Assembly (NCBI GenBank): GCA_018302545.1
Contig: JAGVZM010000003.1
Location: 40,058 to 104,057 of the forward strand
DNA: 64,000 nucleotides
Direction: 5' to 3'
From: Candidatus Woesearchaeota archaeon
GTDB lineage: Archaea; Nanobdellota; Nanobdellia; SCGC-AAA011-G17; GW2011-AR18
Both the position numbers and the translations under genes were made by a program. Position 1 is the stretch's first letter; each line of letters opens with the position of its first letter. Under the pieces are notes generated by a model. The model was not told where the DNA came from. It searched no databases and saw nothing but the letters and a program-made list of their open reading frames with translations. This document shows, piece by piece, positions 3 through 11,681 of this stretch.

Positions 3-671
3 GACGACCATTTTGCAACAATAGTTAATGCAATAAAGGAAGGAAGAGGAATATATAACAATATTAAAAAGTTTATAAGCTATTTATTTTCTTGCAACCT
101 CGCAGAAGTATTAGTTATTTTCATAGCCTTGTTGATTAATTTACCATTACCATTAATTGCAGTACAAATATTATTAATGAACTTATTAACTGATGGGCTT
201 CCTGCCCTTGCATTAGGTATAGATAAAATAGAACAAGATGTAATGTCTCAATCTCCAAGAAATCCTAAAGAACACATAATAACCAAAAAAGATTTATTAT
301 TTATATTATTTCAAGGGGCAATAATGACAACAATAGTATTAAGCTTATTTTATTATTATCTAAAAACAAATAATATAAATTATGCTCAGACAGTTGCATT
401 CTCAGCTCTTGTCCTATGCCAACTATCCAACGCCTATAATTATCACACTGCAAAAAAATCAATATTTAAAACAAATCCATTTTCAAATAAACTCCTAATA
501 GGGGCAATTTTAACCTCTTTAATAATCCAAATAGTAGTAGTTTATTCTCTAAATAATTTATTTAAAACCATACAATTAGGGCTATACACAGTTTGCATAA
601 TTATTGGGGCAAGCCTAATCATGATAATATCCCAAGAATTGATAAAACTGTTCTCTAAACCAAATTACTGA
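3..671 (+). CDS. P-type cation-transporting ATPase, C-terminal fragment (5' end lies outside the window)
   Basis: The reading frame is open from nt 3 and in frame with the listed ORF at 129. Translation DDHFATIVNAIKEGRGIYNNIKKF...LLMNLLTDGLPALALG matches the conserved C-terminal TM region of P2-type ATPases. Confidence 0.7.
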   Translation, partial: DDHFATIVNAIKEGRGIYNNIKKFISYLFSCNLAEVLVIFIALLINLPLPLIAVQILLMNLLTDGLPALALGIDKIEQDVMSQSPRNPKEHIITKKDLLFILFQGAIMTTIVLSLFYYYLKTNNINYAQTVAFSALVLCQLSNAYNYHTAKKSIFKTNPFSNKLLIGAILTSLIIQIVVVYSLNNLFKTIQLGLYTVCIIIGASLIMIISQELIKLFSKPNY

Positions 672-673
672 AT

Positions 674-1347
674 TGTAAAGTAAACGTCACCAAATTTAGT
701 CCTAAAGGAAAAAATTAAATAGAAGGTTTGGTGAAACAAATTATTATAAATATGAACAATTTAAAGGCACCATTTATGAAACGAAGCTCAACAATATTTA
801 TTCAGGTAGTCATTGTGCTCATCGGCATCGGCGCTCTTGCCCTTATGCTTTGGGAACCTCACCTCGAGGGCAGGAATGTGCATGCCACACTTTTTGAAAT
901 TTACTTCAAAGATCCTTTTTTGGCGTATGAGTATATAGCGTCCATTGCGTTTTTCGTGGCGTTATATAAAGCGTTTAAATTGCTCGGATACATCGGGCAA
1001 AATAAGGTATTCTCGCAAGCGGCCGTGAATGCTTTGCGGACTATAAAATACTGTATGATATCTCTTATTGGTTTTATCGTGGGTGCAGAAGCCTACTTCT
1101 TTATAGCTGGAGGAGGTAAGGATGACATCGCTGGAGGCGTAATGATTGGTCTTTTAATGATTTTTTTCTCCGTCATAATCGCCACTGTGGCAACGGTGTT
1201 TGAAAGAGCCATATGCAAAAAGCAAAAACTTATATTTTTATAAATTAAATGAGGATTTTCTTATAAACAACTTTCATAAATTCATTAAGAACCTGAAATT
1301 TAAAAAACTACCTAAAATCATCAAAAATAAATGACGTTTACTTTACA
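674..1347. mobile_element. Inverted-repeat-bounded GC-rich mini-cassette carrying a DUF2975-like gene. It has 16-bp perfect terminal inverted repeats (TGTAAAGTAAACGTCA at 674-689, reverse complement at 1332-1347) and encodes no transposase.
   Basis: The perfect 16-bp inverted repeats were read directly. The enclosed ~640 bp is clearly GC-richer than the flanking DNA. Confidence 0.45.
728..1243 (+). CDS. Small multi-pass membrane protein, DUF2975-like
   Basis: Four predicted TM helices. About 45% GC against roughly 27% background. Topology resembles bacterial DUF2975 proteins. Confidence 0.45.
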   Translation: MVKQIIINMNNLKAPFMKRSSTIFIQVVIVLIGIGALALMLWEPHLEGRNVHATLFEIYFKDPFLAYEYIASIAFFVALYKAFKLLGYIGQNKVFSQAAVNALRTIKYCMISLIGFIVGAEAYFFIAGGGKDDIAGGVMIGLLMIFFSVIIATVATVFERAICKKQKLIFL

Positions 1348-1394
1348 GATCACAAATTACTAATATTTATATAGTCTTATAATATTATCAATAA

Positions 1395-2345
1395 TTGAAA
1401 ATTAAGATGAAAAAAATAACAAATACTGTATTTATAATTTTGTTTCTTGTAATATTCACTATACCTATATTTGCTGAGGATTCTATCAATAACGAATTTT
1501 CTAATGACTGTCTTACAGTAAAAGGAGGAGACGGTTCTTATTGGCTATGTGAGAGAGGTGTATTCTTGCACAATAAAAAAATGGCATTTATAGTTGAAGA
1601 AATTTCAGAAGACATAGTTAAAATAAGAGTAGATGATTCAAAAATTAGAATTAGTTTTACTAATACCTCAGAATTTGGACAAGAATCAAAGTTCGATTAT
1701 ATTGATGTAAAATATAAAATAACCTTTGAAGGTCTTGATAATAACAATACAAAAGTAAGACTAACTATAAATTCAATTACAGGAAAAGAATTAAAACAAA
1801 ATCTGCAAGTTCAAGAATGTAAACCTGGAGAAAGACGTTGTATTGATACAGCTGGAAATTTGAAGTATTCCCAACAAAATACTCAAGGATATTATGGGAT
1901 GCATAAAATATGTTGTGGTGATAATTCAAATTATGATTATAGTCCTGTTTGTGGAGATTTAAGTGGAGTTTGGAAAGATTGGCAACCCGTACCATCCTGT
2001 TCAGAAAATAAAGAAAAAACATCTAACCAAGAAGAAAAAGATGAAGAAAAACAAACAAAAGAATCAAATTCTAAAAAAATAGAAGAAAAATGTAATGGTT
2101 GTAAACAAAATGAAGTTTGCCTTCCAATAGGAACAAGATTAACTGAAGAAAATAAACCAAGATATTGCGATATTGACTTAAATATAAAAGAACAAAAAAC
2201 AAACAGTCAAAATTGCCAAAATAATTACGAATGTTCAACAAATCAATGTAGTAATAATGAGTGTGTAAATCTAACAGAAGAATTAAAAGAAACAAGAAGT
2301 CTTATACAAAAATTATTTGACTTATTAAGTAAGATTTTCGGTTAA
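1395..2345 (+). CDS. Secreted cysteine-rich protein of unknown function, with signal peptide
   Basis: N-terminal hydrophobic signal. Many Cys in CxxC and C-x-C arrangements and a K/E-rich linker. Confidence 0.5.
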   Translation: MKIKMKKITNTVFIILFLVIFTIPIFAEDSINNEFSNDCLTVKGGDGSYWLCERGVFLHNKKMAFIVEEISEDIVKIRVDDSKIRISFTNTSEFGQESKFDYIDVKYKITFEGLDNNNTKVRLTINSITGKELKQNLQVQECKPGERRCIDTAGNLKYSQQNTQGYYGMHKICCGDNSNYDYSPVCGDLSGVWKDWQPVPSCSENKEKTSNQEEKDEEKQTKESNSKKIEEKCNGCKQNEVCLPIGTRLTEENKPRYCDIDLNIKEQKTNSQNCQNNYECSTNQCSNNECVNLTEELKETRSLIQKLFDLLSKIFG

Positions 2346-2354
2346 ATTATATCT

Positions 2355-3700
2355 TCTAGTTCGCAATAACACTCTACTCCTTTAGGTCTGAGTGAATTGC
2401 GAAAATATATTCTCCAATATGTCTCTTATAGAACAATGGTGGACGACACGACAAGGGATACGCGCGTAGAACTTATAAACTAAAATTCCTAAATAATTCT
2501 AATGTTAAAAACTTACAAATTCAGAATATATCCAAACAAAAAACAAGAGATAAAACTATTAGAAACTCTAAATCTTTGTAGGTTCACCTACAATAAACAA
2601 TTAGAACTAAAGATAAACAAATATAAAGAAAATAAAGTAAATTTAACACAATTTGATCTAAATAATAACTTAATAATACTAAAAGAAGAAAATAAAGAAT
2701 TAAAACAAATTCATTCTCAAACATTACAAGATATAAATAAAAGAATTAGTTTAGCTTTTAATGGATTTTACAGAAGATTAAATAAAAGAGAACAAGTAGG
2801 TTTTCCTAGATTCAAAAGTAAATATAGATATGATTCAATAACATATCCTCAATCTGGATTCAAATTAGAAAATCAGCTTTATATTTCTAAAATAGGACAA
2901 ATAAATATTATTAAACACAGAGAAATAGAAGGTAAAGTTAAAACCTTAACAATTAAGAAAACTTCTACAAACAAATGGTTTGCATGTTTCTCAGTAGAAC
3001 AAGAAAGTAAGAGTCACTCTAATCTAACAAATGAAGAAACAATTGGAATAGATCTAGGAATAAATCACTTTTATGCAGATTCTAATGGAAATCTAGTAGA
3101 TAATCCAAAATATCTAAGAAAATCAGAGTTAAAGTTAAAGAAATTACAAAGAAAACATTCTAAAAAGTTAAAAGGTTCTAATAATAGAAATAAATCTAGA
3201 TTAAAACTAGCTAATCTACATGAATTAATAAGTAATCAAAGAAATGACTTCTTACATAAACAATCAAGACAATTAGTTAATAATTATAATACAATAGTAG
3301 TAGAAAGATTACAAATAAGTAATATGACTAAAAACCACTATTTAGCTAAATCTATAAATGATGCTTCTTGGAATAAGTTTCTACAACTACTTTCTTACAA
3401 AGTGGAAGAGACTGGTGGAAAGTTAGTAGAAATAGATCCAAGAAATACTAGTCAATTATGTATTTGTGGCAATAAAGTAGAAAAATCATTAGCTACTAGA
3501 GTGCATAGATGCAATAATTGTGGAATAGAAATGGATAGAGATCTTATGTCTGCTTTGATTATTAAGGAAAAGGGAATAAATGATTTTAGTATTATTACCG
3601 TAGGAACTACGGGAATTCAAGCCTGTCAGAGAACTTCAATAGAAGTTCAGTGAAGCAGGACGCTCGGTCCCTTTAGGGCCGAGTAGTTCACATAAAAAGA
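2355..3700 (+). mobile_element. IS200/IS605-family insertion sequence, TnpB-only (IS1341-like), about 1.35 kb
   Basis: Left-end hairpin TTCGCAAT(2360-2367)...ATTGCGAA(2396-2403). Right-end hairpin CTCGGTCCCTTTAGGGCCGAG (3663-3683). Both ends share the motif CCTTTAGGnCnGAGT. The ends are GC-richer than the background. Confidence 0.65.
2502..3653 (+). CDS. tnpB: TnpB (OrfB), RNA-guided nuclease of IS200/IS605 family
   Basis: N-terminal YKFRIYPNKKQ motif. RuvC-like segments (IGIDLGI, VVERLQIS). C-terminal zinc finger CICG...CNNCG. Confidence 0.85.
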   Translation: MLKTYKFRIYPNKKQEIKLLETLNLCRFTYNKQLELKINKYKENKVNLTQFDLNNNLIILKEENKELKQIHSQTLQDINKRISLAFNGFYRRLNKREQVGFPRFKSKYRYDSITYPQSGFKLENQLYISKIGQINIIKHREIEGKVKTLTIKKTSTNKWFACFSVEQESKSHSNLTNEETIGIDLGINHFYADSNGNLVDNPKYLRKSELKLKKLQRKHSKKLKGSNNRNKSRLKLANLHELISNQRNDFLHKQSRQLVNNYNTIVVERLQISNMTKNHYLAKSINDASWNKFLQLLSYKVEETGGKLVEIDPRNTSQLCICGNKVEKSLATRVHRCNNCGIEMDRDLMSALIIKEKGINDFSIITVGTTGIQACQRTSIEVQ

Positions 3701-3736: not shown

Positions 3737-4300
3737 ATGAGTATATTTACTAAAAACAAGGTGGTTATAGTCCACGGTTGTACTTCTGATAAAAATGATT
3801 TAACTTTTAATAAACATTGGATGCCCTGGCTTAAAAAAGAATTAGAAAAATTAAATTTTAAAGTTAAAATACCTAAAATGCCAGAAACTTGGAAGCCAAA
3901 CTATAATAAATTCAAAAAAGAATTTGAAAAGAATAAAATAGATGAAGATACTATATTAATTGGACATAGTTGTGGCTGCGCTTTTATAGTTCGTTGGCTT
4001 GGAGAAACAAAACAAAAAATTAAGAAATTAATATTAATTGCCCCTTGGAAAATTTATGATAAGGATGACAAAATCAGAAAAGAATTTTATAATTATAAGA
4101 TTGACGAAAATATAAAAAAGAGAGTTAAAGAAATTATAATGTTTACTTCTAATAATGAGGAAGAAGATGGCAAAAAAAGCCTAAAGATCTTTCAAAAAGA
4201 GTTAGGCGGTAAAATTATAGAACTAAAAAATAAAGGGCACTATGCATTTGAAGATATGGGTTCAGAGGAATTTCCAGAATTATTAAAAGAGATTATATAA
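3737..4300 (+). CDS. alpha/beta-hydrolase, YdeN/RBBP9-like serine esterase
   Basis: GHSCG nucleophile elbow (GxSxG), about 187 aa. Confidence 0.5.
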   Translation: MSIFTKNKVVIVHGCTSDKNDLTFNKHWMPWLKKELEKLNFKVKIPKMPETWKPNYNKFKKEFEKNKIDEDTILIGHSCGCAFIVRWLGETKQKIKKLILIAPWKIYDKDDKIRKEFYNYKIDENIKKRVKEIIMFTSNNEEEDGKKSLKIFQKELGGKIIELKNKGHYAFEDMGSEEFPELLKEII

Positions 4301-4305
4301 ATAAT

Positions 4306-7035
4306 TTATCTCCTAAAACCCATTCTAGGACCAATTTTTCTAGGACTCTTAATTTCTCTAATAACTGAATCTATTTGGTTATCTCTCCAACCTTTAGATT
4401 TCAAGGCAATCTTTATTTTGCCTTCATTCAATCCCTTATTTAAAGAATTTTGTACAAACATCTTTAATGATTGATGATCCCTTTCAGTTTTAAACAAACC
4501 GCCACCAAAAGATCCTGAAACTGATGAAACAACCTTCCCAAATTTCTTATTCAAAAAACCACCTTTAAAGAACAATCCAAAATAAATTATAATTCCAATT
4601 ACAATAACAGCGACACCAATTAAAATGAATAGGAAAGTATTACCTTTTTTACAATCTTTAGGGCAACTAAGTTCATCTTCATCCTCTTCACAGAAATTAT
4701 TTCCACATTCACTTAATATTTCCACTTCGCCGTTTTTAGTAGTAGACTTATCTACCTCAACACTTTCTAAATCTGCAGGTAACACTGCCGTTCTTGCTTG
4801 TAGGGCTTTATTTAAATCTGTAGTATCTAACTTGTAAGCTATTTCATTTGAATATGCAAAACTATAAACTCCAGAAGCTGCATTAGTAATATTTCCCCCC
4901 TTAAAGACATCATCATTTCCTATTGAAAATCCAAAAGGTAAAAATTCATAAATTTTATTCCCATCACCATTTATAATTTTTTTAATGACTGTATATTCCT
5001 CTTTACTTCCATCAATATACTGTAAGTTCACAACCCTAGCTTCAAAATTCACATTTACATTTTTTTGAGCAGTTAGTAATTTAGTTCTTTGTAATTCTGT
5101 CGTAAACTCACAACAAGATTTAATTTGGTTTAATCCATTTATTTTTCCACCATCATTAAAATTAGAGCTATCTACATTAAAACTAATTGGTATTTTTGAG
5201 GATATAAATCCGGCTTGGCTTAATAAAGGAGCAATTAAACCATTTTTTTGTTGATCAGTTAAAGTAGCATTATTATTTATTCTATCAAATTTATTTTTTA
5301 TATCTGTTAGATTAGCTTCAAAATTATTTAATTTAGAATTTAATCCTATTAAATCAGCTGTATCTTTAACCTTTTCATTACCTTTTCTCAAATTATCTTT
5401 AAATAAACTCAAAGAACTTAAAGTAGTATTAATTATATTTCCACTTCCGCTGCTATCATTGCCAATTTCTATAAATACTTTATCAACATCAATCAAGCCT
5501 TCACTATCTTTAACTTTTAATTTTATCTCATAAACTCCAATTTTAGTATAGGTATAAGTCACAACTGGACCATTTCCTGTTTTTCCATCTCCAAAATCCC
5601 ATGTATAATTAATAATATTTCTTCCAAGAGGAGCAGTACTTGCACTTGCATCAAAAGTAACTAATTCTCCCTTTCCAGGTTTAAATGGATCAATTGTAAA
5701 AAATGCTACTGGAGCATCTACGACTTCAAATTTAGTTTTATTCGTTCTGCTTCCATTAAATTCAACATAAAATTCATAATCATTATCTTTTTCTTTCGGA
5801 GTAAGTACTGTATTTAATGACTCTAAATTTATGTTTACTAATCTATCATATTTTAAAGCTTCAGGAACATGGTTTATTTTCTTAAATTGTCTTTCTGTTG
5901 CAGAACTACCCCCTACTAAATATCTAAAGAATAAATTAGTTATCTTAACATCTCCACCACTACCAACTGTAAAATTAAGAGGCATAACTAAACTTCCAGA
6001 ATCACTCATATAATTATCAATATCCTCTTTTTTTATTTCAACTTGTTTTATATTACTAGGACCAACATTCAAGGCTTTATTATAAGTCATATACTGTCCA
6101 AAAATATAAAAATTCCTATTAAATTGGTTTTCTGCTCCATTAAAAAAAGAATTTTTAGGCTGTGTTGCTTTTGTTTTAATATCAAAATAATCTGTACTAT
6201 CTTCATTCGCGTTTGTTGGGTAAACACAGAAGTATAAAGGTTTATCTTCAGGAATATTCTTTATAATATCACAATCAACTTCTCTCATAGAATTACTTAA
6301 TCCATTAAGAGTACAACAAGGTGTTTCTTCTTGGCAAGCTTGATCTGAATCTCCCAAAACTTCCTCACTAATTGTAGCATTTAATCCAACATTAGGATCA
6401 CTAACCTTTTTCTGAGCAAAAACTTTAACTTTATATTTTCCAGAAGAATTAACATTAATTAATTGACACAAAACACTATTTCCTGTTATGCCCTGAGTTC
6501 CTTCAGTTCCAGAATCTGTAATATGTTTATTACTTAAATCAATAAAACCAGTTTCTCCACCCCTATATTCATAAATTTTTTTCTCCCCTAAATATATAGC
6601 TAGATCTCTCACGTTCCTTCCAATAGCTTCGACATCAAAAGTGAAATTAGTTACATCAACATCTCCAGAAGAAAAACCATTGCCACTTAAATCAACACCA
6701 ACCTCTATTTTAGAACCACCAGAAGAATTAAATTCTAATATTCCATTAGAATTTCCAACAGGACCAAAAGTAGCAGGAACTATATTATTTCCTTTATACA
6801 AATCTGCAGCCTGAAATAATTGCTTTAAAGTAACTTTATTATCTGAATCCCCATTATAAAAAATAACTTCAGAATTAGATGGAATATTTCCAGAGAAATT
6901 AAATTTAAAATAACCATCAAATGTATTATCAGGCCCATATTTTGTTCTTGTTAAATTAGTATCAACAAAAACATTTGCAAAAACAAAATTGCTTAATAAA
7001 ACAATAAATAAAACAATAAATAATCCTCTTTTCAT
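4306..7035 (-). CDS. Large cell-surface (S-layer-like) protein with PKD domain and C-terminal TM anchor
   Basis: Signal peptide. PKD-like segment (TWDFGDGKTG...YTYT). Cys-rich stalk, one C-terminal TM helix and a short basic tail. Confidence 0.55.
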   Translation of the reverse strand: MKRGLFIVLFIVLLSNFVFANVFVDTNLTRTKYGPDNTFDGYFKFNFSGNIPSNSEVIFYNGDSDNKVTLKQLFQAADLYKGNNIVPATFGPVGNSNGILEFNSSGGSKIEVGVDLSGNGFSSGDVDVTNFTFDVEAIGRNVRDLAIYLGEKKIYEYRGGETGFIDLSNKHITDSGTEGTQGITGNSVLCQLINVNSSGKYKVKVFAQKKVSDPNVGLNATISEEVLGDSDQACQEETPCCTLNGLSNSMREVDCDIIKNIPEDKPLYFCVYPTNANEDSTDYFDIKTKATQPKNSFFNGAENQFNRNFYIFGQYMTYNKALNVGPSNIKQVEIKKEDIDNYMSDSGSLVMPLNFTVGSGGDVKITNLFFRYLVGGSSATERQFKKINHVPEALKYDRLVNINLESLNTVLTPKEKDNDYEFYVEFNGSRTNKTKFEVVDAPVAFFTIDPFKPGKGELVTFDASASTAPLGRNIINYTWDFGDGKTGNGPVVTYTYTKIGVYEIKLKVKDSEGLIDVDKVFIEIGNDSSGSGNIINTTLSSLSLFKDNLRKGNEKVKDTADLIGLNSKLNNFEANLTDIKNKFDRINNNATLTDQQKNGLIAPLLSQAGFISSKIPISFNVDSSNFNDGGKINGLNQIKSCCEFTTELQRTKLLTAQKNVNVNFEARVVNLQYIDGSKEEYTVIKKIINGDGNKIYEFLPFGFSIGNDDVFKGGNITNAASGVYSFAYSNEIAYKLDTTDLNKALQARTAVLPADLESVEVDKSTTKNGEVEILSECGNNFCEEDEDELSCPKDCKKGNTFLFILIGVAVIVIGIIIYFGLFFKGGFLNKKFGKVVSSVSGSFGGGLFKTERDHQSLKMFVQNSLNKGLNEGKIKIALKSKGWRDNQIDSVIREIKSPRKIGPRMGFRR

Positions 7036-11595: not shown

Positions 11596-11681
11596 AGCCT
11601 CTGACGGGATTTGAACCCGCGATCTCCGCCTATTTAGACTATTTTACCAAGGCGATGCTCTACCAACTAAGCCACAGAGGC
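11596..11681 (-). tRNA. tRNA-Thr(GGU) with 13-nt intron at position 37/38. No encoded CCA.
   Basis: Manual fold gives acceptor GCCUCUG/CAGAGGC, D-arm with G18G19, anticodon stem UCGCC/GGCGG, loop UUGGUA|A, T-arm GCGGG-UUCAAAU-CCCGU and discriminator U. Confidence 0.85.

Follow-up and report, generated by a model that had tools for sequence, protein, structure and literature searches.

Background

How does a GC-rich membrane protein gene of bacterial origin come to lie between two inverted repeats in the AT-rich DNA of an uncultured archaeon, directly behind the gene of a P-type cation ATPase? Both DPANN archaea and the bacteria of the Candidate Phyla Radiation (CPR) are uncultured and of ultra-small size, and they are believed to exchange genes by mechanisms that are rarely visible. 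Here, we investigated such a locus in a stretch of 64,000 nucleotides from Candidatus Woesearchaeota archaeon (assembly GCA_018302545.1, contig JAGVZM010000003.1, positions 40,058–104,057), hereafter the window, to which all coordinates without a contig name refer. A preliminary description of this DNA had singled out a DUF2975-like gene between perfect 16-bp inverted repeats at 674–1347 and had proposed a non-autonomous mobile unit. Our analysis places the element at 669–1352 (684 bp), and we consider it highly probable (roughly 0.88) that it is a non-autonomous derivative of an IS6-like insertion sequence (IS), i.e., a mobile insertion cassette (MIC) with a cargo of the bacterial yoaS type. 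Elements of this kind are already known, and this cassette is new to that kind.

Element boundaries and target site

The 16-mer TGTAAAGTAAACGTCA was found where it had been reported, at 674–689 with its exact reverse complement at 1332–1347, and the window contains no third copy, even at up to three mismatches. It forms the core of a longer terminal inverted repeat (TIR) of 21 bp (669–689 and 1332–1352), the arms of which are identical at 19/21 positions and match a family consensus, TGAGCTGTAAAGTAAACGTCA, at 19/21 (left) and 20/21 (right) positions. The boundaries and the repeat length given earlier were hence too narrow. Directly abutting both TIR tips lies an 8-bp target site duplication (TSD), CAAATTAC, with 661–668 matching 1353–1360 at 8/8 positions. 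The element and its borders comprise the following features:

3–671, plus strand: 3' end of the P-type cation ATPase gene (Pfam Cation_ATPase_C, E 2.9e-51)
661–668, strand not applicable: left TSD CAAATTAC, 8/8 identical to 1353–1360
669–689, plus strand: left TIR TGAATTGTAAAGTAAACGTCA; the consensus of 44 archaeal copies has a sharp outer edge
690–746: left subterminal AT-rich segment, probably IS-derived, resembling the TIR-adjacent sequence of locus L024
744–751, plus strand: TATA-like box TTATAAAT, across the 746/747 junction and some 28 nt ahead of the ATG at 776
747–1206, plus strand: foreign bacterial (CPR-like) DNA of 460 bp, a 29-nt leader and codons 1–144, the last incomplete
776–1243, plus strand: passenger open reading frame (ORF), 155 aa, DUF2975 membrane protein (PF11188, E 5.8e-19, 68.7 bits, gathering score 27)
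1207–1266: AT-rich segment in which the passenger ORF ends, contributing its final codons and its stop
1267–1331, minus strand: right subterminal region; autonomous copies have its homologue at their transposase-proximal end
1332–1352, minus strand: right TIR (reverse complement TGATCTGTAAAGTAAACGTCA)
1353–1360: right TSD CAAATTAC, then TAA at 1361–1363, the ATPase stop before insertion
1366–1373, plus strand: TATA-like box TTTATATA of the downstream host gene (312 aa), starting 14 nt from the TIR tip

The ATPase gene, seen at its full length of 855 aa in contig L001, adjoins the repeat as the preliminary description had stated: its stop codon TGA (669–671) lies 2 nt ahead of the 16-mer and is supplied by the TIR, and its last codons, CCA AAT TAC, fall inside the TSD. 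The target before insertion can be reconstructed as ...AAA CCA AAT TAC TAA TAT TTA TAT AG, with TCTCTAAACCAAATTACTAATATTTATATAG as the corresponding empty site. Read in this way, the TGA of the TIR replaces the original TAA and the predicted ATPase protein is left unchanged, and the putative promoter of the downstream gene, just past the duplication, is likewise left intact.

Two further repeats at the borders were reduced to the same parts. An apparent extension of the inverted repeat (27 nt, 85%) is better read as five extra TIR bases plus a partly palindromic TSD, and an apparent 9-bp direct repeat, CAAATTACT, is the 8-bp TSD with a coincidental T.

In first-order Markov simulations of the AT-rich window, at least one perfect 16-bp inverted pair occurred in 32% of the simulated windows for arms 50–3000 nt apart and in 11% for arms 50–1000 nt apart, and 17 of 100 shuffles gave at least two matches to the 16-mer at up to three mismatches. 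A chance repeat, or a terminator- or operator-like palindrome unrelated to mobility, could draw on this range of 11–32%, and also on the observation that the motif is common in archaeal intergenic DNA beside TATA boxes. We nevertheless count the repeat as real because of the 8/8 TSD and because it belongs to a family of TIRs. The duplication outside the extended repeat recurs at 18 other TIR pairs and refutes an origin by chance; moreover, transposase genes lie between such pairs, the element has no match in Rfam, and the arms are 642 nt apart, which is too distant for a terminator, so that this explanation is scarcely credible. The Rfam scan returned a single match in the window, a tRNA at 11596–11681. 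The suspicion that the 16-mer might be a common intergenic motif at loci without insertions was not borne out; it is common in archaea, but as the ends of TSD-bearing insertions. The 5' end of a small RNA with the upstream TATA box as its promoter, an origin-recognition box, an operator, and attC were dropped as identities of the motif, given that its conservation stops sharply at the TIR tip and that 8-bp TSDs follow.

The wording "recombination-site-bounded" in the preliminary description is likewise unsupported in view of the inverted boundaries and the TSD. A cassette of a site-specific recombination system (integron attC, Xer/integrase) or a product of an IS200/IS605 TnpB element would fit the single, promoter-poor foreign gene, which is integron-like in being a small unit with one gene, and a TnpB gene lies 1.1 kb away. 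In contrast to integron gene cassettes, however, the boundaries are inverted rather than direct, the 8-bp duplication is of the DDE transposase type and is not made by site-specific recombination, and neither an attC-like R''/R' core nor IntI or another integrase was found, the latter among the ORFs examined up to position 4300. The TnpB element has no sequence in common with the repeats and was judged unrelated to them, and to our knowledge IS200/IS605 elements have no TIRs and make no target duplication. Together, these origins are extremely improbable. The TnpB gene itself is complete (383 aa, 2502–3653, plus strand, downstream of the element), encodes OrfB_IS605 and Cas12f1-like TNB domains (NCBIfam guided_TnpB, 305 bits), and has no TnpA beside it.

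A truncated bacterial gene inside an insertion sequence shell

The sole substantial ORF inside the element is the DUF2975 gene, as had been anticipated. Its product is 100% identical to the NCBI Woesearchaeota protein P0001 and has four long hydrophobic stretches, as read by eye from the sequence and not computed. Nucleotide homology to bacterial loci is confined to 747–1206/1223, with 89% identity to L006 (Yanofskybacteria), 87.6% to three contigs from the Hainich aquifer (L135–L137), where it begins exactly at 747, and 81% to Anaerolineales loci, where it ends at 1207. At the protein level, passenger residues 1–146 are 86% identical, ungapped, to the 160-aa bacterial protein P0006 (BLASTP), and the C-terminus after FER is encoded by non-homologous AT-rich DNA. 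More than 8000 DUF2975 relatives were found in the databases at 73–88% amino acid identity, and the named ones, which come from several bacterial phyla, include members of Yanofskybacteria, Uhrbacteria, Anaerolineales, Edaphobacter, and Bacteroidota.

In all bacterial loci examined that extend past the gene, DUF2975 is 160 aa long and is followed within 4–10 nt by a 67-aa HTH_26 gene. Such YoaS-YozG operons, consisting of DUF2975 and a repressor of the Cro/C1-type helix-turn-helix (HTH) class, have been noted across diverse phyla (bioRxiv 10.64898/2026.09.15.751765). Over 146 residues, the passenger shares 86% identity with a YoaS-type protein of the CPR, but it differs from these operons in its archaeal host and in having lost the last 14 codons, the operator region beyond the 29-nt leader, and the repressor gene; the homology ends at 1206, ahead of the gene end, and the YozG-like partner is not present at the window locus. 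The preliminary description had suggested looking for a donor clade and for an HTH partner: a CPR-type donor is indicated, whereas the partner is absent here. A 3'-truncated gene with 87–89% nucleotide identity to CPR loci agrees with the passenger from a GC-richer bacterium that it had proposed. In the bacteria themselves, the DUF2975-HTH module and about 70–90 nt upstream of it are 81–93% identical in nucleotides between CPR and Chloroflexi (L006, L007–L012, L135–L137), and the module sits amid small accessory genes and, in L007 and L008, near a phage-type integrase; it looks horizontally mobile in its own right.

The GC content follows the limits of the homology. It is 41.5% in 747–1206, 22–26% in the flanking parts of the element (25.6% in 669–746), and 29.1% in the whole window, and in 200-nt windows it reaches 0.40–0.45 across 800–1200 versus 0.20–0.30 on both sides. 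The GC-rich interior had thus been recognized correctly, but the repeats do not directly bound it: because the homology spans only 747–1206, the inverted repeats bound an IS shell and not the foreign DNA itself. On the right, the last 84 nt (1269–1352) are 81–86% identical to the transposase-proximal ends of autonomous copies at seven other loci (L112, L124, L157, L175, L224, L230, and L239), and the subterminal region retains the ATG (1277–1275, minus strand) and the following AAA GTT of a 52-aa ORF of the family before it diverges. The left 57 nt inside the TIR have similarity to L024 only, in a weak alignment, and are probably IS-derived as well. Between the foreign DNA and the right end, the 60 nt at 1207–1266 matched neither the bacterial homologues nor other copies of the element. 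The TATA-like box TTATAAAT lies across the junction of shell and foreign DNA and, by the archaeal promoter spacing rule, could be a hybrid archaeal promoter for the passenger gene.

In agreement with the preliminary description, no transposase is encoded inside the element, and an IS6-type transposase was not found anywhere in the 64-kb window (tblastn with a family transposase, best E 0.099).

An IS6-like family in uncultured archaea

A scan of one genome per prokaryotic species with the 16-mer matched at least 120 DNA stretches, a number that is overall close to the chance prediction. Among the matches listed, however, a large share belongs to Woese-, Pace-, Nano-, Micr-, and Aenigmarchaeota, Bathyarchaeia, Thaumarchaeota, and Methanosarcinales, and in these archaeal groups the match extends to TGAGC-TGTAAAGTAAACGTCA-CC(T). 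In 44 archaeal copies, conservation breaks off 5 nt outside the 16-mer. Facing TIR pairs with an 8/8 TSD were found in L014 (CATTAAAA), L017 (CACATCAA), L027 (TTATTATA), and L112 (GAAAAACA), a more tolerant search added an element of 387 bp in L077 (8/8), and a metagenome scan with the 21-mer added 13 further elements of 510–5960 bp, all with 8/8 TSDs (43 pairs tested). The total is 19 elements, the window element included; octamers beside unrelated pairs matched at 0–3/8 positions. A pair in L030 (702 bp) and several pairs at bacterial loci failed the duplication test and were discarded. Twelve of the 19 TSD octamers begin with C (e.g., CTAAAAAC, CGAAGTCA, and CAAATTAC), often after ...TTAA, which may be a preference in the target sequence or the conserved edge of a TFB-recognition element (BRE).

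The longer elements encode proteins of 289–311 aa with an N-terminal CxxC zinc finger between their TIRs. The proteins of L112 and L014 match DDE_Tnp_IS240 (PF13610) with 44.2 and 46.4 bits (cut-off 27), and the best NCBIfam match is "IS6 family transposase" (NF033587, 81.7 bits, E 5.5e-23), followed by IS1 with 36.7 bits. Members of the IS6 family are characterized by an 8-bp duplication and by short (15–20 bp) conserved inverted repeats with a GG tip and cTGTt and caaa motifs (PMC7986276). In the TIR TGAGCTGTAAAGTAAACGTCA, CTGTA and AAA runs are present, the tip is TG, and the conserved end comprises 21–24 bp. We regard the repeats as the ends of an IS6-like transposable element because of the 8-bp TSDs and the transposases between such TIRs.

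Autonomous copies with identical TIR cores occur in other Woesearchaeota genomes. The autonomous copies of the family carry UvrD-like helicase, methyltransferase, AlaE-like, and TrmB-like genes, and the complete copies measure 1.9–6 kb, with passenger genes in those inspected (L014, L027, and L112). Five siblings of the window element lack a transposase: two have no cargo (L077 and L203, the latter of 510 bp), and three carry a SET-domain gene (L186, 834 bp), a TrmB-like and a membrane gene (L168, 1515 bp), or an MjaI-type restriction-modification pair (L017, 2296 bp). As this varied cargo shows, interiors are clearly exchanged often in this family. The non-autonomous unit that had been proposed, either a cassette or similar to a miniature inverted-repeat transposable element (MITE), is thus substantiated by transposon ends with an 8-bp TSD here and by cognate transposases between identical TIRs elsewhere.

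A conserved 52-aa ORF (MKVMKVVDKKVGNTTYYKYRINLPKEAVEQL...) is located between TIR and transposase at 5880–6038 (minus strand) in L112 and 3530–3688 (plus strand) in L224, with a remnant at 1277–1245 (minus strand) in the window. In these two autonomous copies, it has a weak, sub-threshold match to the MazE/AbrB type (E 0.0013) and may be an element-encoded regulator.

Several occurrences of the motif concern bacteria. The 16-mer matches in Steroidobacteraceae and in cyanobacterium CCP3 stand in unrelated conserved contexts without the archaeal TIR extension and were set aside; the former has the form GCGCGTAG-16mer-CTTTCGTAAAC in Steroidobacteraceae/Gammaproteobacteria, upstream of a gene in many Steroidobacteraceae, and in the latter the 16-mer is part of a repeated element. 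Nearly all of L014, a 3840-nt contig binned as Sneathiellales, consists of a complete element (UvrD-like helicase and transposase, TSD CATTAAAA), and positions 6536–6557 of L060, from a Lentimicrobiaceae (Bacteroidota) metagenome-assembled genome (MAG), are 22 nt identical to the right end in the window. Both may reflect mis-binning or a presence of the family in bacteria.

Source of the cargo and integrity of the assembly

A look-up of the exact 155-aa product gave no entry, and contigs carrying the passenger gene were retrieved with the near-identical protein P0002. One of these bears directly on the donor: contig L003 (ENA ERZ4903125 k141_2729311, 1–2317) consists of a Parcubacteria stretch and a yoaS leader, followed by sequence identical to window 747–1530, which covers the 155-aa gene, the right IS end, and the beginning of the downstream archaeal gene. 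On the upstream side of 747, the contig passes into the conserved bacterial yoaS leader. Its 1473-nt stretch is 99.2–99.3% identical to L258–L260 and L262–L265 (98.7% for L264), which represent one Parcubacteria population, and 95.9% identical to the NCBI record L261. The 141-aa product of an ORF on L003 has 99% identity to a protein from Parcubacteria GW2011_GWC2_40_31, whose named homologues are all from CPR/Patescibacteria, with one labelled just "bacterium". The other Parcubacteria contigs have no DUF2975 gene at the corresponding place. L003 is either a chimera in which the assembler crossed over within a stretch shared by donor and recipient or an evolutionary intermediate; if it is a chimera, a Parcubacteria variant in the same sample must carry a gene that matches the archaeal copy perfectly for the length of one k-mer or more. 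Under either reading, L003 indicates that the event was recent and that the source was a CPR bacterium from this aquifer.

The mixture of Parcubacteria and archaeal sequence in L003 also raises the question whether the cassette itself is an assembly chimera, with a bacterial DUF2975 piece stitched into an archaeal contig. Close DUF2975 relatives co-occur in the samples, which would tangle the assembly graphs, and two contig tips deviate from the window: in L005, TCTTTCTCACAAACAT (1–16) stands where the window has the outermost 7 nt of the left TIR and the adjoining flank, and L134 opens (1–17) with variant DUF2975 sequence. These tips may be noise at contig ends or co-occurring variants. A chimera would, however, have required shared k-mers at both 746/747 and 1206/1207, and the bacterial piece is cleanly framed by an IS end on each side, with its ORF intact. 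The same structure is found at 99.9% identity in contigs of several samples (L001, L002, L004, L133, and L134), i.e., in five or more contigs that differ in sample and assembler, and also in the NCBI MAG. Because the junctions recur at this identity across samples and an NCBI genome encodes the identical 155-aa protein, the cassette is, as far as contig sequences can tell, not an assembly artefact, and we give a chimera very little weight.

The TIR 21-mer was absent from viral contigs, and thus nothing points to a viral carrier.

Proposed course of events

In the course of events that we favor for the IS6-like cassette, the element would have entered the Woesearchaeota chromosome by DDE transposition, with an 8-bp staggered cut in the last codons of the ATPase gene. 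The 52-aa ORF and the transposase that formed the inside of the parent IS would have given way to 460 bp from a bacterial operon of the yoaS/yozG type, for which a CPR/Parcubacteria-type bacterium of this aquifer is the most likely source. The cassette would be inert alone and would depend on the transposase of an autonomous copy acting in trans on the 21-bp ends. Its movement would presumably proceed by replicative cointegrate formation and subsequent resolution, the route known for the IS6 family (PMC7986276). The passenger would be transcribed from the TATA-like box formed at the 746/747 junction.

The capture of the bacterial DNA may have come before the insertion or after it. In an alternative that differs solely in this order, a plain IS or MITE landed first and its interior was swapped later, in place, by illegitimate recombination, and the DUF2975 cassette itself never transposed. 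The DUF2975 unit is known at one genomic location, the TSD records the insertion of the ends and not of the present interior, and segment 1207–1266 suggests untidy, non-transpositional joins, all of which would suit such an in situ capture. The single-gene cassettes among its siblings show frequent exchange of the interior, though not where it took place. We regard in situ capture as a serious possibility, somewhat short of an even chance.

A number of observations weigh against the interpretation as a mobile IS6-like cassette. A 16-bp inverted repeat on its own falls inside chance expectation, and the 57 nt of the left subterminal segment and the 60 nt at 1207–1266 have no convincing homologues. 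The transposases score below the NCBIfam IS6 equivalog cut-off of 125 bits, and the TIR tip is TG and not the GG typical of IS6; because of these two deviations, we use the label "IS6-like" as safer than "IS6". A single copy is known, all contigs that carry the gene share one right flank, the 24-mer across the left junction (735–758) was absent from the metagenome collection, and no second insertion site was found there. With one genomic locus in all contigs, nothing indicates that the cassette has moved since gaining the DUF2975 gene. The empty site was not found either; the downstream 312-aa protein has no homologue but itself, and its contigs all carry the cassette. Finally, L003 is possibly chimeric, so the assignment of the donor is indirect.

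Insertion next to archaeal promoters

The flanks of the family were compared in 144 independent TIR/flank junctions (loci L013–L132 and L138–L257). A TATA-like hexamer starts 15–26 nt outside the TIR tip in 65 of these junctions, versus 8–14 in control windows of the same width further out. In 23/144 junctions, the start codon of a divergently transcribed gene lies at exactly 43–45 nt from the tip against a background of 2.3 per position (binomial P 3e-16). The genes at this peak are mutually unrelated, and several look like housekeeping genes by their sequence. Among the 19 complete elements, 16 have a TATA box at the respective distance on at least one side and four have it on both sides, with no fixed orientation of the TATA side relative to the transposase. 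The tip thus stands 43 nt ahead of a transcription start or leaderless start codon, and the TSD occupies promoter positions of roughly −35 to −42, next to the upstream edge of BRE/TATA. The right end of the window element fits this family-wide promoter spacing as judged from its predicted promoter, since its tip is at 1352 and 1352 + 43 = 1395 is the predicted transcription start of the 312-aa gene.

We tentatively propose, as a possibility that we rate at slightly below even odds, that the family selects its targets by archaeal promoter architecture and acts in DPANN and other archaea as a promoter-docking gene shuttle able to install genes acquired from CPR bacteria that live alongside them. 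The cue could be DNA that is bound by TATA-binding protein (TBP) and transcription factor B (TFB), bent DNA, or a BRE/TATA-like sequence. Alternatively, the pattern could arise by survivorship in very compact genomes; the sharpness of the peak, down to single nucleotides, favors targeting over survivorship, as far as can be judged from junction positions. The promoter spacing pattern is perhaps more novel than the cassette itself.

Comparison with known mobile elements

The archaeal elements share with the IS6 family (IS26, IS257, and IS240; archaeal clade A and zinc-finger clade h; PMC7986276) the IS240-type DDE domain, the 8-bp TSD, the short conserved inverted repeats with cTGT and AAA, and the longer type of transposase with an N-terminal CxxC zinc finger. 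They differ in the TG tip, the conserved end of 21–24 bp, the transposase scores below the NCBIfam cut-off, and the 52-aa AbrB/MazE-like ORF that precedes the transposase in L112 and L224. Their complete copies measure 1.9–6 kb compared with about 0.8 kb, those inspected carry passengers, and the family ranges across the DPANN and further uncultured phyla of archaea. Because a 2021 review lists one passenger-carrying IS6 member and two MITEs only (PMC7986276), the archaeal group is unusual within the IS6 family.

The window element most resembles the MICs, such as MIC231 of the Bacillus cereus group and the mic of qnrD/qnrS2, in its two IS ends with a TSD, a passenger without transposase, and a movement that would rely on transposase supplied in trans. 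It differs from these in the IS family and the domain of life, in the truncated bacterial passenger, and in its single known copy. With MITEs, including archaeal ones, it shares the descent from an IS by deletion with both ends and the TSD length of the family kept, but unlike them it holds a full-length foreign coding region and is not known as multicopy; the true MITEs of the same family are the cargo-free L077 and L203.

Conclusions

At the level of sequence, the locus is a concrete case of a bacterial gene reaching a DPANN archaeon in which both the vehicle and the insertion event can be seen, with CPR/Parcubacteria of the same groundwater community as the likely source. What makes it interesting is the cargo from another domain and the behavior of the element family, which departs from the textbook IS6 in its long complete copies, with cargo in those inspected, its MITEs, and its single-gene cassettes. 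If the promoter-docking proposal is true, the window element would represent one such docking event, given its Parcubacteria-like cargo and a right end that lies 43 nt from a predicted transcription start. If the spacing reflects active targeting, the family would be a prokaryotic counterpart of the promoter-directed integration known from eukaryotic elements.

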